A stretch of 64,000 nucleotides of DNA from an uncultured Chloroflexia bacterium. GTDB taxonomy: Bacteria > Chloroflexota > Anaerolineae > B4-G1 > SLSP01. The notes under the pieces are model-generated. The model made no database searches. It saw nothing but the letters and a program-made list of their open reading frames with translations, and was not told where the DNA came from. Within the stretch, counting starts at the first letter, position 1, and each line of letters begins with the position of its first letter. Positions 242 to 6,955 of the stretch are shown here, piece after piece. The stretch is taken from assembly GCA_963751345.1 (NCBI GenBank), contig CAVVUS010000047.1:1-64000 (forward strand). Reading direction: 5' to 3'. The translations under genes and the position numbers were made by a program.

Positions 242-3200
242 ATGAAGGCATCTTGGCTCCGTCTGCTGTTGCTCGTTGTCGGTCTTGCGGCGTTTGGGTC
301 TGCTCCTGACGTCCTAGGATCGAAGCCGGCACAGTCCCGGTTCTCCTCCAGCCCGCAAACGGGATGGAGGTCACTTACCTGAGCCATCCCCCCTTGGCGC
401 TCCCGAACTTCGAGTGGACGGCGGTGGAAGGTGCCACCCAGTATGAGCTCTCGATCGCGCGTGACGTGACCTTCAATGACGACATCACGATCAAGACCGC
501 GAATACGCGCTACACGCCGGTGCGGTCCCAGTTGGACTTTTTTCTGGACTCCACGGACCAGTTTTACTGGCGTGTCAGGGTGTCCAAGCCGGCGGTGGGG
601 GAGTGGTCCAACGCCAGCATGCCCTGGACGTTCTCGAAGAAGTGGGGCACGCCCTCGGGCGACCCGCCCAATGCCCCGCAGCTCTTGAGTCCGGACAATG
701 GGGTCTCGCTGGCGTTCTTCGATGCGCCGGTCTTCTCTTGGACGCCGATCACGGGCACGGCCTCCTATCGCCTGGAGATCGCGTGGGACGTCGACTTCAC
801 GACCATCGCTCTCACGCAGAGCGGGCTGCCCTCGACGACGTTCCAGCCGCCCAGCAAGCTCAGCAACGGCACGTACTACTGGCGCGTCACGCCCTACGAC
901 GTCGCCGGTCACCCGGGAGCGACGAGCGTGACGCGGCAGTTCACGATGGCCGGGGACAAGATCCCTTTGATGCGCTACGACAGCTCGCGCCTGCAGACGG
1001 CAGCTTTCCCACCTTCACGCCGACCTTCGAGTGGGCCGCCATCGACGGTGCCCAGTTCTACAGGTTGGAGTACTCAACGGATTCCACCTTCCAATCGGGC
1101 GTGAAAAGGATCGACACGAGGTCGACGTCCTACACGCCCTATCAGTTGCCGAATGACGTCAACTACTATTGGCGCGTTCGCGCGCTCTCGGGATCTTCAC
1201 AGACGGATTGGTCAGAGGTGTGGAGCTTTGAGAAGCACTGGTACATCCAGCCCGAACTGCTGACACCAGTCTCCAGCTATCAATACACGTCGGACGCGCC
1301 GCTCTTCAGTTGGACGTCTGTTCCCGGCGCGGCCTACTACGTGCTTGAATGGGCGCGGGACCAACATTTCCTCGTCAGCCACACGTCCGTCTCGGTGATG
1401 CACACCTACTACTATCCCTACAACAGAAGTTTTGGCGCGGCCGAGACCTGGTTCTGGCGTGTGACGCCCTATCACGGGGCCGGCTACGCGGGTGCGCCGA
1501 GCACCACACGCTCGTTCACGCTCGGGGCAGGCGCCGAGCTGGTGCCCGATCAGGTGTACCCCAGCTACACCTACGAGCCCGATGCAAGGTTCAGCGTCCA
1601 CGAGCCCACAACGGCGCCGCTCCCGATCTTTGCCTGGGAGAGGGTCATCGAGGCCTTTGACTTCGTCGGTACGTACGAGCTAGAGGTCGACGATGACCCC
1701 TTGTTTGGCTCCCCGGAGTTCACAGAGACGACGGCGAACTCGACGGTCGTGCCGGACTGGACGAGGCCCTTCACGCCTCGGTAGGGACCCCAAGTATTAC
1801 TGGCGCGTGCGGTCGATCGACCGGAATGGGGCGCAGCGCGCGTGGAGCCAACGATGGCTGGCCGAGTTTGATGCTTCTCTGGGGTTGGCGCCGACCTCGG
1901 GCACGCCGCTGCAGTTGCTGCGACCGGTGAATGGTGCGCAGGGGGTCCAGGGCATCCCTCTGCTGGAGTGGTGGCCGGTGGCAAGCGCGACGTCGTACAC
2001 CGTGACGATCGCCACGGATCCCGCGATGGCGGATACTGTGGTTGTGGCGACGGCGCAGTATCCGGCGTACGCTCACACTGAGGTCCTGCCGTACGACACG
2101 TACTACTGGCAGGTGCAGGCGGCTGACGGTACGTCGCCGGTTGGGACGGCCAGCGAGGTGCGGCGGTTCGAGATCGCCGCTCAGGACCGCTGGCGCGAGG
2201 TGCAACCGTCGCCGATGGTGTCGGACACGCATACCAAGACACTCGTCGCACAGGACGGCGTCGGCGAGGGGACGCCGGACTTGGCAAATCTCTATGTCGC
2301 CAACGATGCGCTCTACTGGAATATCGGATTCGACGTGGTGACGACGGCGGTGAGCTTTGACTACATGATCTTGATCGATGTGAACCGCGCAGACGGAATG
2401 GGTGCGCCCAGTGACCCGGTGTACGGTCTCTCTGTCATCACAGCCCACCGGCCCGAATACGCCGAATTACCGACATCAGGGCGCTTACACTCCGGTGACA
2501 GGTGGCTTCAGCATAACGCAGACAGCCTTCTATGCTTACGAGTCGGGAATGTGGCTGACGCCACAGGACCTGCCGAGCATCGGGGGAAAGTCTGTACTAC
2601 ACGGACGCATCTACCTCTCCTATGGTGCTTGATGGCTTTCTGCAGGTGCGGCTGGGGCTCGGCTCGTTGGGCACTCCGGGAACCGTGGCCGTCGAGGTCG
2701 TAGCGCTGGACGGTGCCGGCGCCGTAGCGGATACGCTGCCCGCGAGCCGCGAGCCGGAGCTTGACGGCTTTGTGTCCATCTCGGAAGAGGTGATGCCGAT
2801 CTGGCCGTTCGATGGTGTTGCAGGAGACTCCACGACCTATGCCCACATCCCAGTCATGCGCCTGCACCCGCAGGTCGACGCCGAAATCCATCCGACCCAG
2901 GGCTATGCCGTGCAGATCGCACGAGACCCGGAGTTCTCCTCAATCGTGGAACAGGTTGCCAACTTCCGTTGGCCCGGCTACACGGTAGCCGCCGAGGATC
3001 TCGATAGTGACAACACATACTACTGGCGAGCGCGCGTCAAGCACGACGGTCTCGCGGGTGATCCAGGGGGGCCCGACAACTCCCATGCGTGGCGTTTTGT
3101 GAGGCAGGGGCTCGTCCCCGGCGCGCCTCAGGTCGAGATGCTCGGATCGAGCGTCACGTTCTCCTGGGACAAGGTGGAGGGGGCCGATCAATATATCCTT

Positions 3201-4027
3201 CAGTGGAGCACCGATCCGAACTTCGGCACGTCTTCCGGCGCGACCGTGCGTGCTTGGCAACATACTCCCCAGGCGTTGCTGACGCCGGCTACGTACTACT
3301 GGCGAGTTCGAGTGCGCGAATGGAGCGGAGAGCAGAACGACTGGGCAGGAGGAGGCGCGTTCACTGTCTCGTTGCCGATCCCCTCGGGCCTTGAGGTGCA
3401 GCCTGCGGGCTCGGTCGTTCCGCGAACGCCGACGCTCATATGGTCGGCGTATCTCACGCCAACCGACGTCCCGCGCTTCGCTGCTTGGAGGTACGGCGTC
3501 CAGATCTGCCGAGATGAGAACATGACGGATGGATGCCAATCTGTCGTCACCGAGCAGCACTCGTGGACCCCGCCGACCACGTTTGCGGAGGGGGCTCTCC
3601 ATTGGCGCGTACGCCTGGTCGACGGGAACGGCCACTCCGGCGAATGGACCGAGAATCCACCGGTGACAAATCTCATCACGAAGCAGTATCCGGCAGCTAA
3701 GCTGGTATCACCGGTGGGCGGCGGGCCGCTGGGAGGCACGCCTACGTTCGTGTGGGAACCCGTCAACACGATGGACGTACTACCGACGTCGAGATCAGCA
3801 AGGACGAGCTGTTCGCGACGATCTACGACCAGGTAGACACGGCGGCGACGCAGTATACGCCGCTGAAGGCCTACGACACGGCGCAGTACTACTGGCACGT
3901 CTGTGTTCGCGACAAGGATGGTAAGCAGGGACCGTGCTCGGATTCGATCATCATTCTGGACGCTTTGCCCTATCACGTGTATGACTATGGTGGTAAGGGA
4001 CTGACGAGGCTGAAGGCCAGCCGATGA
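242..4027 (+). CDS. Large secreted FN3/Ig-like repeat protein (about 10 repeats), split by several frameshifts
   Basis: Signal-peptide-like MKASWLRLLLLVVGLAAFG at 242; ORF pieces 364-1104, 603-1784, 1693-2703, 2622-3836 and 3752-4027 each carry P.F.W..V.GA..Y.LE...D..F....YYWRV modules. Confidence 0.8.
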
Positions 4028-4098
4028 CGGTTCAGTGATCTGGTGAGGGTGTGACAGCTGAGACGCGCGCACTGCCCGGGAATATGCCATTTTTCATA

Positions 4099-4127
4099 TT
4101 GCAGGAGAATGGTTATGATAGTACAAT
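4099..4127 (+). promoter_or_regulatory. Sigma70-type promoter with no convincing downstream CDS
   Basis: TTGCAG (4099-4104), 17-nt spacer, TACAAT (4122-4127) in an AT-rich island. Confidence 0.7.
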
Positions 4128-4133
4128 AGTCTT

Positions 4134-4228
4134 GGCGTGTGATAAAGAGTCCCGCCCTCTTTGATCATCACGCTGTTGGTTACCCTCCTTTCGCAGAAAC
4201 ACGCCCCGCAAGGGGCGTGTTTCTGTTT
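4134..4228 (+). ncRNA. Candidate small RNA of about 95 nt
   Basis: Promoter upstream; bulged hairpin GCGTG-TGAT-AAAGAG/CTCTTT-ATCA-CACGC with a C-rich loop; linker ACCCTCCTTT; terminator hairpin. Confidence 0.6.
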
Positions 4229-4230
4229 AT
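4194..4230. terminator. Intrinsic terminator hairpin, possibly bidirectional
   Basis: Perfect 14-bp stem CAGAAACACGCCCC-GCAA-GGGGCGTGTTTCTG followed by TTT; the zinc-ribbon gene ends just beyond it on the minus strand. Confidence 0.85.
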
Positions 4231-4242
4231 GGCGAATGACAG

Positions 4243-4943
4243 CTACCCCGCCACCAGCAACCGCCTGCAACTATCGCAATACGCCTCCTGCCCGCGCTCG
4301 ACCTTGACGCGCGTGGGACGGAGGACTTCGGTGCCGCAGATGCTGCAGGTGCCGGCCCTGAGCTGCGCGACCGGCAGGTGGCCGGTGCGCTCCCGCAGGT
4401 AGCCGTAGGTGTCGAGCATCGCCGGGCGGGATCTCGGCCGCGGTGGCCTGCCGCTCCTCCGCCAGCGCCGCGATGCAGTGTCTCCAGCTTGGCCTGCTCG
4501 GCCAGCAGCCGCGCGTGCAGTTCCTCGCGGCGCGCCTCCAGCTTGGCGACCTCGCGGGAGGCTTCTTTCGCCGCGAGGTCGGCCTCCTCGCGCTCGATCA
4601 TGGCCTCCAGCACTTCGTCCTCCAGCGCTGAGACGCGGCGCTTCAGCGACTCGAGCTCGGCCTGGAGGTCCTGCAGCTCGCGGCTGTTGGTGATCCGCCC
4701 GCTGTAGAGGTTCTGCTCCTCGCGAGAGCGCTTGACCTGCACCTGCGAGAGCTCGAACTCCAGCTCGTGCTGGGTGTGCCGGGCCGCTTCTACGGCGGCG
4801 CCGGCTTGCTGCGCCAGGCGCCGGGCCCGCGCAAGTTCTGCGTCCTCCCGGAGCTCCAGCGCGATCTCGCCTAACCGCTCCTGGTGCTCCTCCATCTCTA
4901 GGTCAATCTGCTGCAGGCGGATCAGCGCTTGGGGCCAGGGCAT
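4243..4943 (-). CDS. Coiled-coil protein with C4-type zinc ribbon (DUF164/zf-RING_7 family), one frameshift
   Basis: LIRLQQIDLE start, long coiled coil with NSRELQDLQAELESLKRR; an alternate frame supplies CSICG...CDSCRRLLVAG-stop. Confidence 0.85.
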
Positions 4944-4973
4944 GGGAGCGTCTCCTTTGGGAAGCGGTGAGAA

Positions 4974-5104
4974 AGCTGTCAGCTATCAGCGGTCAGCAAG
5001 GAGTAGGGAGTAGGAAGTAGGGAGTAGGCCTTGTAGCGCGCTCTACTTCTTACTCCTTACTCCTGCTTTTTCGCTGAGAGCTGAGAGCTGTTAGCTATCA
5101 GCTA
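4974..5104. repeat. Nested inverted heptamer repeats
   Basis: AGCTGTC/AGCTATC/AGCGGTC, then GGAGTAG-type x4, then their complements TTACTCC-type x3 and GCTGAGA-type x3. Confidence 0.85.
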
Positions 5105-5926
5105 GTCGGCCGAACCACTCTTCTTGCGATCAAGACTGCCGCGCCGACCACGAAGAGCCCGATGGCGATGACCTGGGCGGTGGCCAGGGACGGGGTGGCC
5201 ATCCAGGCGTCGGGGCGGAGGAATTCGGTGCCGAAGCGGATGACGGCGTAGCCCATCAGGTAGATCACGAGGATGTCGCCGTTGCGGAGCCGGTCGCGGA
5301 AGCGCCTCGTCGACCCAGATCAGGAGCACGCAGAGGGCCAGGCATGCCAGCGATTCGTAGAGGAAGGTCGGCTGGAAGCGCGTCGACTCCGGGTACTGCG
5401 TCAGGTCATTGAAGGGCGGGATGCGGTACTGGGGCGGGATGTTGAGGCCCCAGGGGAGGGTGGTGGGCGGGCCGTAGAGCTCGCGGTTCATGAAGTTGCC
5501 CCAGCGGCCGATGGACTGGCCCAGCGCGGCGCCGGGCGCGATGAAGTCGAGCCATTGGAGCACGTTGAGCTTGCGGATCCAGCAGAAGATGACGACGCCC
5601 AGCGCGCCGCCCGCCAGCCCGCCGTAGATGCCCAGGCCGCCGTTCCAGATGGCGAAGACCTGGAGCGGGTTCTGCTTGTAGTAGCTCCAGCCGAGCATGC
5701 CGCCCTGGGGCGACGAGAAGACGTGGTAGGCCCGCGCGCCGATGAGCGCGAGGACGATGACGACGATCAGCATGTCCCAGATCGTCTCGGGGTCCTCTCC
5801 GGCCTGATCGGCCAGGAAGGTGGCGACCCGTGCGCCGAGCAGAATCGCGGTGGCGATCAGGAAGCCGTACCAGAAGATGGTGAGCGGGCCGATGTGCAGC
5901 AGGATGGGACCAAACGGTGGTTGCAT
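5102..5926 (-). CDS. lgt: Prolipoprotein diacylglyceryl transferase, copy 1 (frameshift near the 3' end)
   Basis: WYGFLIA, IGARAYHV, GGLGIYGG, QSIGRWGNFMNRELYG, QPTFLYES. Confidence 0.9.
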   Translation of the reverse strand: MQPPFGPILLHIGPLTIFWYGFLIATAILLGARVATFLADQAGEDPETIWDMLIVVIVLALIGARAYHVFSSPQGGMLGWSYYKQNPLQVFAIWNGGLGIYGGLAGGALGVVIFCWIRKLNVLQWLDFIAPGAALGQSIGRWGNFMNRELYGPPTTLPWGLNIPPQYRIPPFNDLTQYPESTRFQPTFLYESLACLALCVLLIWVDEALPRPAPQRRHPRDLPDGLRRHPLRHRIPPPRRLDGHPVPGHRPGHRHRALRGRRGSLDRKKSGSAD

Positions 5927-6040
5927 AATGAGTTCCTCCTTCCGGAAATCAGCGTATTGCCCCATTGTACGCCGAATCGGCGGAGAGGGGTAGCGATTGA
6001 CCAACCTTGCGAAGGTTTTGCGCGTGCCGACGTCACGGCG

Positions 6041-6138
6041 GAAGACGGCCCACCGGGCCGTCTGTACAAGGTACGCAAGAGGGCCCACCGAGAGCCGTGT
6101 CTACAGCCGCAGAAGACGGCCCACCGGGCCGTCTCTAC
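6041..6138 (-). repeat. Three GTAG-type REP-like palindromes
   Basis: GAAGACGGCCCACCGGGCCGTCT(G/C)TAC at 6041 and 6112 with a degenerate copy between; same family as 31704-31798. Confidence 0.8.
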
Positions 6139-6151
6139 AAGGCAGAGGGGG

Positions 6152-6955
6152 CTAGCCGGCCGGGGCGATGCGGCGCCAGGGCCGGTAGCGGACCAGCAGG
6201 TAGACGACCGCTGCCGCGGCGAAGACGACCGCGAGCCCCTGGGCGGAGGTGTTATCCGTGCGCCAGTAGTCCATCACGAAGCGGATGATGGAATAGCCGA
6301 TGAGGTAGCCCGCGAGGAGCGTCCCCGGCTTCAGCCGGCCGCGGAACCGGTCGGCCAGCACCACCAGGCCGACGCAGAGCAGCAGGTTGGCGAGCGACTC
6401 GTAGAGGAAGTTGGGCTGGAAGCGGGTGTCGAGCGGGTAGTGGGTGAGATCGTTGTAGGGCACCACGCGGGCCTGCAGCGGGATGTCGAGACCCCAGGGC
6501 AGCGTGGTGGGCGGGCCGTAGAGCTCGTAGTTGACGAAGTTGCCCCAGCGGCCGATCGCGTGGCCCATCGCCATCCCCGGCGCGGCAAAGTCGAGCAGGC
6601 GCAGCGGCCGGATCTTGGCGAGGGCGGCGTAGCCCAGCACGCCCAGCGCCCCGCCGGCGATCGCGCCGTAGATCCGCAGCCCGCCCTGCCAGATGTAGAA
6701 GGCCTCGTCGAGGTGCTGGCGATAGTAGGCCCAATGCGGGGACACCAGCACGTATTCGACGCGCGCGCCGATGATGCCCACGATCACGGCGATCATGAGC
6801 GCATCCCAGATGCGTTCGGGGTTCTCGCCGGCGCGCTTCGCCAGGTAGGTGGCGACCTGCGCGCCCAGCAGGATGCCGGTCACCACCAGCAGGCCATACC
6901 AATGGATGGCGATCGGGCCAAGTTGGACAAGGATGGGGGATACGGGTGGGGTCAT
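6152..6955 (-). CDS. lgt: Prolipoprotein diacylglyceryl transferase, copy 2
   Basis: IHWYGLL, IGARVEYV, AIGRWGNFVNYELYG, QPNFLYES. Confidence 0.9.
   Translation of the reverse strand: MTPPVSPILVQLGPIAIHWYGLLVVTGILLGAQVATYLAKRAGENPERIWDALMIAVIVGIIGARVEYVLVSPHWAYYRQHLDEAFYIWQGGLRIYGAIAGGALGVLGYAALAKIRPLRLLDFAAPGMAMGHAIGRWGNFVNYELYGPPTTLPWGLDIPLQARVVPYNDLTHYPLDTRFQPNFLYESLANLLLCVGLVVLADRFRGRLKPGTLLAGYLIGYSIIRFVMDYWRTDNTSAQGLAVVFAAAAVVYLLVRYRPWRRIAPAG

Follow-up and report, generated by a model that had tools for sequence, protein, structure and literature searches.

A Predicted Small RNA Gene with an Anti-Shine-Dalgarno Core, Conserved in One Order of Anaerolineae

1. Small RNAs with C-Rich Anti-Shine-Dalgarno Motifs

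Bacterial small RNAs (sRNAs) that act on ribosome-binding sites through C-rich motifs have been described in several groups. RoxS/RsaE, from Bacillales, is a short sRNA that has its own promoter and an intrinsic terminator, acts independently of Hfq, and pairs through unpaired C-rich stretches with the Shine-Dalgarno (SD) regions of many mRNAs. The 6C RNA of Actinobacteria uses two C-rich hairpin loops as seeds; it belongs to a high-G+C clade lacking Hfq and needs no chaperone. In the CcsR or “cuckoo” sRNAs and the AbcR-type sRNAs of alpha-proteobacteria, anti-SD motifs of the CCUCC type are carried by hairpin loops, sometimes in tandem arrays. A search of the literature on Chloroflexota and Anaerolineae found no described regulatory RNA of this anti-SD kind.

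The locus considered here lies in a 64,000-nucleotide stretch of DNA from an uncultured Chloroflexia bacterium, which was analysed as a whole and is called the window. A preliminary description of this DNA had proposed an sRNA whose family it did not recognise, and had called for a cmscan against Rfam. This comparison agrees with it: none of the Rfam 15 families reaches its gathering threshold anywhere in the 64 kb of the window. When positions 4050-4280 are searched at E ≤ 10, 14 sub-threshold matches appear, all of them on the terminator stem, and the best one (sbcD) reaches 18.6 bits for a gathering threshold of 40. Neither the RsaE/RoxS and 6C models nor those of anti-SD sRNA families are among these 14 matches. 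The reading defended below, to which a probability of roughly 60% is given as a whole, mechanism included, is that the window carries an uncatalogued, order-confined sRNA which represses translation through anti-SD pairing.

2. Anatomy of the Locus

The complete predicted sRNA gene extends from 4083 to 4232 on the + strand of the window, where promoter, hairpin, linker and terminator can be read in the sequence. The promoter first described as TTGCAG-17-TACAAT, which is of sigma-70 type, is found at 4099-4127, with the −35 box TTGCAG at 4099-4104 and, after a spacer of 17 nt, the −10 box TACAAT at 4122-4127; it is in register with the TTGACN-16/17-TAnAAT promoters of 20 homologues. A simple promoter scanner listed an overlapping TTTTCA-17-TATGAT instead, since TTGCAG fits TTGACA at only three of six positions, and the short T-run kept the terminator out of its list. 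An upstream promoter element, TATGCCATTTTTCATA, occupies positions 4083-4098 and was recognised in alignments of 21 promoters and of 78 oriented loci.

The RNA itself is predicted to start near 4134 and to run to about 4230 (+), which gives a body of about 95-100 nt. It begins with a 5' hairpin of 41 nt (4134-4174) interrupted by two one-base bulges; purines dominate in its 5' arm and pyrimidines in its 3' arm, and the loop, UCCCGCC, lies at 4150-4156. The fold thus reproduces the bulged hairpin with loop TCCCGCC that had been seen by eye. An unpaired linker of 18 nt follows (4175-4192), with ACCCTCCTTT at 4182-4191. The near-invariant single-stranded core of the family, UGGUUACCCUCCUUUCGC, lies at 4177-4194 and includes, at 4184-4192, the 9-mer CCUCCUUUC, which has the very sequence of the anti-SD tail found on the 16S rRNA of the organism. 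The gene ends with an intrinsic terminator whose stem of 15 pairs spans 4193-4226, with a short U-run to 4232. The 14-bp GCAA-loop terminator of the preliminary description is therefore present, as 14 Watson-Crick pairs plus one closing G·U pair, with the loop at 4208-4211 and TTTAT behind the stem. Folding of the 99-nt RNA returns the same anatomy at −48.1 kcal/mol (z = −6.84, none of 200 shuffles being as stable). The likeness between the contig of a relative and the window spans exactly 4135-4228, which marks only the borders of the conserved unit and not those of transcription.

As had been stated, the flanking genes are convergent. A + strand ORF of a repeat protein ends at 4027, and a − strand gene of the HP0958/CT398 (DUF164) family, located at 4243-4943, ends at 4243; Pfam CT398_CC matches the N-terminal part of its product with an E-value of 9.9e-17. 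Several genes of the window are split between frames. The large repeat protein (603-4027, +) is divided into four overlapping ORFs in different frames, the DUF164-family gene is read in two frames with a break near 4420-4440, and the first lgt copy (5098-6088, −) is also split. These genes reflect either indel errors of the assembly or decay. Two tandem LGT paralogues (5270-6088 and 6152-6955, −) lie upstream of the DUF164-family gene; this farther part of the window also holds a DUF2085 gene.

3. Homologues and Their Distribution

Homologues were collected with a covariance model built here in two rounds, the final one being R2, and matches in genomes were counted at E ≤ 0.01; in the repeat model search, a stricter cut-off keeps out matches to terminators on the reverse strand. 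The search and the covariance alignment in relatives proposed in the preliminary description thus found the unit in 107 of 145 genomes of the same order. By family, the matches concern 39 of 70 genomes in the family designated f1, 42 of 48 in f2 and 25 of 26 in f3. When the intergenic region was compared by BLAST with 40 relatives, a core of 20 nt was 100% identical in genomes of three families. The relatives have the same layout, i.e., promoter, hairpin with C-rich loop, core, variable terminator and T-run.

Beyond the order, the class sample (151 genomes) gives only three weak model matches (E 0.002-0.005), and the phylum sample (151 genomes) gives weak matches in 2 of 150 other genomes. In the species-representative collection, 84 stretches contain the exact 18-mer TGGTTACCCTCCTTTCGC, and their titles are nearly all those of Anaerolineae, Anaerolineales, Thermoflexales, Thermoflexus, Thermoflexia or Chloroflexota MAGs. 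Among the 80 exact loci listed, 78 are model matches and 77 of them score at least 34 bits. One locus, from a MAG titled Fidelibacterota, is a weak match (23.9 bits), while the two loci without a model match, from MAGs titled Bacillota and Lewinellaceae, carry the complement in another context. As far as sampled, the sequences suggest that the family is confined to one order of Anaerolineae (Chloroflexota), the Thermoflexales according to MAG titles.

Some matches at the margins of this distribution deserve mention. In a MAG titled Promethearchaeota, a contig of 2.9 kb bears a good sRNA copy (43 bits, L095:545-632); this contig is most likely a mis-binned Chloroflexota fragment. Two weak matches from another order of the class (L062:1501-1568 and L061:1501-1569) have a terminator after GGTTACCTCCTTTCGC or a close variant of it. 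The first one sits just past an apparent stop codon, and the 5' hairpin is missing from both. These matches may be distant kin of the family, or else 3' ends that bear an anti-SD independently.

Within the genus of the window, just 5 of the 21 other genomes match the model. In one of the non-matching genomes, a contig begins about 25 nt past the stop codon of the DUF164-family gene, which is exactly the expected position of the RNA, so that at least one of these misses is due to a break of the assembly at the locus. In four other non-matching genomes of the genus, the DUF164-family neighbour was likewise not found with the query used. Furthermore, many model matches are at most a few hundred bases away from the end of a contig (e.g., L164 or G011:C28:1-300). 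The locus seems to break assemblies, and it may be repeated and collapse in short-read assemblies. Because of such breaks, absences and copy numbers are uncertain; as counted, most genomes have one match, one genome has three tandem copies and a few have three or four scattered ones.

The MAG from which the window comes holds a second copy at C11:518948-519046, whose sRNA is 97% identical to that of the window. The end of contig C11 (518897-519977) repeats positions 4083-5147 of the window, i.e., the sRNA and the DUF164-family gene, at 89.6% identity, and its upstream flank resembles another species of the genus. With contamination of the MAG at 5.6%, two origins may be considered for this copy, duplication as a paralogue or a second strain placed in the same bin.

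4. Covariation and Choice of the Strand

The structure alignment comprises 82 model matches, of which 78 are distinct, and is fitted to the model. Standard pairs fill 89.7% of its pair cells versus 61.5% after shuffling. The covariation score is 0.608 versus 0.187 for shuffled alignments, a value that none of 500 shuffles reached, and it falls to 0.09-0.125 when the partners are slid by one to three columns. Both hairpins covary strongly: double-sided changes are seen in 28 of 31 pairs, including all 16 pairs of the 5' hairpin (helices 1-3) and 12 of the 15 pairs of the terminator (helix 4), in which 95% of the cells are paired. In the same way, the C11 copy differs from that of the window by a compensatory change from A-U to G-C in the 5' hairpin. 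RNAalifold run on a plain MAFFT alignment reports only two pairs because the hairpins are out of register in it, hence the need for a model-based alignment. A C-rich motif (CCCGCC, CCGCC, CCGTCCCC or CCCCCC) is found in the 5' hairpin of 72 of the 78 copies.

Since the opposite strand folds equally well (z = −6.87), folding alone does not indicate which strand is transcribed. This leaves room for a reading on the − strand, in which GCGAAAGGAGGGUAACC would be the ribosome-binding site of a small ORF (25 codons from a GTG in the window) or part of a 3'-UTR element of the DUF164-family gene. The reverse complement of the core is indeed a textbook SD and, in the MAG titled Bacillota mentioned above (L112:4757-4774), the exact complement of the core, GCGAAAGGAGGGTAACC, directly precedes an ATG and serves as ribosome-binding site; the 17-mer complement is therefore a natural SD plus spacer. 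However, a start codon is found 3-13 nt after GGAGGG in only 25 of the 78 copies, and the candidate ORFs, of 2 to 84 codons, are unlike each other, which rules out a small − strand ORF behind a perfect SD. The changes in the hairpins are compensatory and not codon-like. G·U pairs can form only on the + strand and A·C cells count as pairs only on the − strand; there are 232 of the former and 35 of the latter. This excess, the promoter at a fixed upstream distance and the T-run after the stem together fix the + strand, on which promoter and T-run are conserved, and a role of the − strand is extremely improbable.

Two general marks of sRNA genes, an own promoter at a fixed distance and a terminator with covariation support, are thus seen in the family. 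Conserved promoter, terminator and covariation suggest that the RNA is transcribed independently as a unit of about 95-100 nt. With the asymmetry between G·U and A·C cells, they bear out the independent + strand sRNA gene of about 95 nt that had been proposed, and it is very probable that the conserved sRNA gene at this locus is real.

5. Genomic Neighbourhood

The preliminary description had expected the unit downstream of DUF164 genes in related genomes. A homologue of this family is convergent and immediately downstream in 62 of the 78 oriented loci (f1/f2), where 19 nt (median) separate the zinc-ribbon match of the gene from the RNA's 3' end, and lgt follows the DUF164-family gene in 57-59 of these 78 loci. 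The upstream side of the sRNA locus is not conserved. Among the 15 loci without a DUF164 neighbour, most belong to f3. In this Thermoflexus-like family, three of the four loci examined have the RNA upstream of a DUF885 gene; it lies 150-300 nt from this gene of 550 aa, on the same strand (L074:950-2879, L068:5547-7605 and L093:1188-3095).

Such a close convergent neighbour could point to a local role, in which the terminator or the transcript would act on the 3' end of the DUF164-family mRNA by bidirectional termination or transcriptional interference. This is very unlikely. The f3 RNA has the same core upstream of a DUF885 gene, and it is in the linker that the RNA is invariant rather than in the region turned towards the neighbour. 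Read on the − strand, the stem leads into GCGAAAGG and not into a U-run. Furthermore, in the genome with three tandem copies, each copy has its own terminator and two have a recognisable promoter element. As the context differs, with DUF164 in f1/f2 and DUF885 in f3, the sRNA gene is a unit of its own rather than an appendage of a neighbour.

The DUF164 family includes FlgZ/HP0958 of H. pylori, for which a role as RNA chaperone is discussed as a possibility in PMC3372290. No sequence link was found between the RNA and the ribosome-binding site of the DUF164-family gene, whose pairing with the RNA does not exceed that of an average SD site.

6. Promoter Element Common to the sRNA and to Flp Pilin Genes

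TTGACN-16/17-TAnAAT precedes nearly all 78 copies; about five deviate, one of which lies at a contig start. The spacer is of 17 nt in 49 copies, 16 nt in 26 and 18 nt in three. A second conserved block adjoins the −35 box: in f1 and f3 it reads TAGTACTTTTTTCC(T/C)A, i.e., TAGTAC-N6-CCYA, and in f2 the same position is held by the inverted repeat TGGTAC-N4-GTAC(T/C)A. The element of the window is degenerate (11 of the 16 positions of that of the family) and has lost its GTAC part; those of its two closest relatives are degenerate too. This element is probably the site of a regulator.

Apart from the sRNA promoters, the element recurs in the genomes searched only before pilin genes of the Flp family (flp). 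In the genome of the window, TAGTAC-N6-CC(C/T)A occurs seven times and is followed by TTG at one site only, C11:506698, where an ORF starting with MLYLPREEGQGLVEYALILVLIAI comes next (G000:C11:506698-506960) and corresponds to flp. In five genomes of f1 and f3, all eight exact matches are promoters, five of the sRNA and three of flp; six of eight further or one-mismatch sites inspected in these families precede flp ORFs. In five f2 genomes, the element is present at five of seven flp loci, one of the other two being cut by the contig start. The element is thus found next to the −35 TTG before Flp pilin genes in all three families (loci L165, L172, L173, L181, L183, L186, L190 and L193-L196). 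At the five f2 loci that bear it, flp follows the end of a histidine-kinase gene, and the three kinases scanned are all DegS-like (HisKA_3). When five f2 genomes are searched for the f2 palindrome combined with a −35 box, four of them contain it at the sRNA locus alone, and the fifth shows two additional sites with one mismatch.

An element of strong promoters in general is ruled out, because only the flp site is followed by TTG in the genome of the window and the eight exact matches in the five genomes are all sRNA or flp promoters. A LexA/SOS box was also considered, as GTAC-N4-GTAC resembles the LexA boxes of cyanobacteria. This reading is ruled out too: the lexA promoters of f2 carry AGAAC-N4-GTTCT instead. 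In the five f2 genomes concerned (L157-L161), this box of Gram-positive type lies between TTGACA and TATAAT. Through the common promoter element, the sRNA may be expressed together with the Flp (Tad) pilin genes.

7. Conserved Core and Proposed Mechanism

The 16S rRNA of the organism ends with ...GGAUCACCUCCUUUCUAA (also given as ...GGCUGGAUCACCUCCUUUCUAA). The core has in common with this end the exact CCUCCUUUC and a preceding UGG.U, and in both RNAs the 9-mer is single-stranded after a hairpin. The sRNA differs from the 16S tail in its location outside the rRNA operon and in the replacement of GAUCA by GUUAC in its core. Furthermore, the likeness stops at the 9-mer: the 30 nt upstream have a median z of 0 relative to shuffles, and z exceeds 3 in none of the 78 copies. 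A mimicry of 16S helix 45 plus tail is therefore unsupported beyond the 9-mer.

The C-rich anti-SD linker had been described as exposed, and predictions agree: the 9-mer has a median unpaired probability of 0.66 versus 0.37 for the whole RNA, and exceeds 0.5 in 64 of the 78 copies. Predictions for a few f2 members have it paired instead, with an unpaired probability as low as 0.02. In a pattern search allowing three mismatches, 36 of the 44 f2 genomes listed have an exact core and two have a best match with one mismatch; among the matches listed, the extra f2 copies vary chiefly in the first two bases. The invariance of the core is partly circular, since most loci were fetched with the exact 18-mer or with a model that rewards it. 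Generic SD pairing accounts for the invariance of CCUCCUUU but not for that of GGUUAC and CGC around it, a hint of another partner.

By analogy with RoxS/RsaE, 6C and CcsR-type RNAs, the unpaired core would pair with the SD region AAAGGAGG of mRNAs, as the ribosome itself does. Pairing of the sRNA would keep the 30S subunit off and so lower the translation of a set of mRNAs, whose stability would probably be reduced as well. The C-rich loop of the hairpin may act as a second contact. The pairing would be rich in G-C and independent of a chaperone; no match to Hfq or CsrA was found in the genome of the window, which is 93% complete. Repression of this kind is given a little better than an even chance.

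Searches for targets in the same genome found no preferred mRNA. With up to two mismatches, the complement of the 17-mer is found in the genes of the sRNA itself and at one site without a usable ORF, and nowhere else. An energy ranking of 5,521 SD-led starts gives a long list without a stand-out target, and the ribosome-binding sites of flp pair with the sRNA at ordinary strength, not above that of an average SD site. Within the rRNA operon region, duplexes attain at best about −23 kcal/mol, close to the 0.1% tail of windows drawn at random from the genome, but they are located some 1 kb upstream of the 16S gene.

The lack of a single strong mRNA target would also suit a decoy, which would imitate the 3' tail of 16S rRNA (UGG.U..CCUCCUUUC), or expose a single-stranded C-rich stretch, and so titrate a binding protein or a ribosome factor. 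The segment common to the core and the 16S end is in keeping with such a role, and an invariance of 17-18 nt, including GGUUAC and CGC, is more than generic SD pairing requires. It is because the invariance of these two flanks lacks an explanation that binding of a protein stays under consideration. However, the replacement of GAUCA by GUUAC and the 30 nt upstream, which are no more 16S-like than shuffles, both speak against a copy of the 16S tail, and the decoy is judged quite unlikely.

Returning to anti-SD repression, a wider scenario can be sketched in which the sRNA would be the post-transcriptional arm of a regulon of Flp/Tad surface pili. One conserved transcription factor, which might be paired with the DegS-like kinase encoded just upstream of flp, would recognise TAGTAC-N6-CCYA beside the −35 box and switch on both the pilin genes and the RNA. 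The latter, as a free copy of the ribosomal anti-SD tail set in the invariant 18-mer, would compete with ribosomes for a defined set of SD sites or sequester a factor that recognises the 16S tail, and would thus reprogram translation during the switch to an attached lifestyle. This scenario is speculative and, as it stands, unlikely.

8. Significance and Comparison with Known Systems

The family is easily recognised by its near-invariant 18-mer between two covarying hairpins, and its covariance model could become an Rfam family for annotation. It would place an sRNA in most of the sampled genomes of the order, including the thermophile Thermoflexus (according to MAG titles) and many uncultured relatives. 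It would also allow the strategy of C-rich anti-SD sRNAs to be tested beyond Firmicutes, Actinobacteria and Proteobacteria. The promoter element common to the sRNA and the Flp pilin genes offers a testable way into the study of regulation in a group for which genetic tools are lacking. As judged from sequence, the originality of the system would lie in an unusually rigid seed, in its order-wide occurrence in a poorly studied phylum and in the unexpected connection of its promoter with those of Flp pilin genes.

The comparison with RsaE and 6C RNA made in the preliminary description holds for the working principle, a C-rich anti-SD motif, but not for family kinship, as no model match was obtained at E ≤ 10. 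Like RoxS/RsaE, the sRNA of the window has its own promoter, an intrinsic terminator and unpaired C-rich stretches able to pair with SD sequences, namely the loop UCCCGCC and the linker ACCCUCCUUUC. It differs from them by its phylum and by the place of its main seed, which is in the linker whereas theirs are in loops; furthermore, this seed is a 9-nt copy of the 16S anti-SD set inside a near-invariant 18-mer.

With 6C RNA it has in common C-rich seeds and a conservation throughout a clade, in another taxon. Two C-rich hairpin loops are characteristic of 6C, whereas the sRNA described here has one, its second C-rich stretch being the linker, and 6C has no free CCUCCUUUC linker. CcsR, “cuckoo” and AbcR-type sRNAs resemble it by their anti-SD motif and by the existence of tandem copies, three in one genome for the present family. 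However, their motifs are in loops, their neighbourhood and phylum are different, and there is no match between them in sequence or model. The family is thus a previously uncatalogued one of a known working kind, that of the C-rich anti-SD sRNAs.
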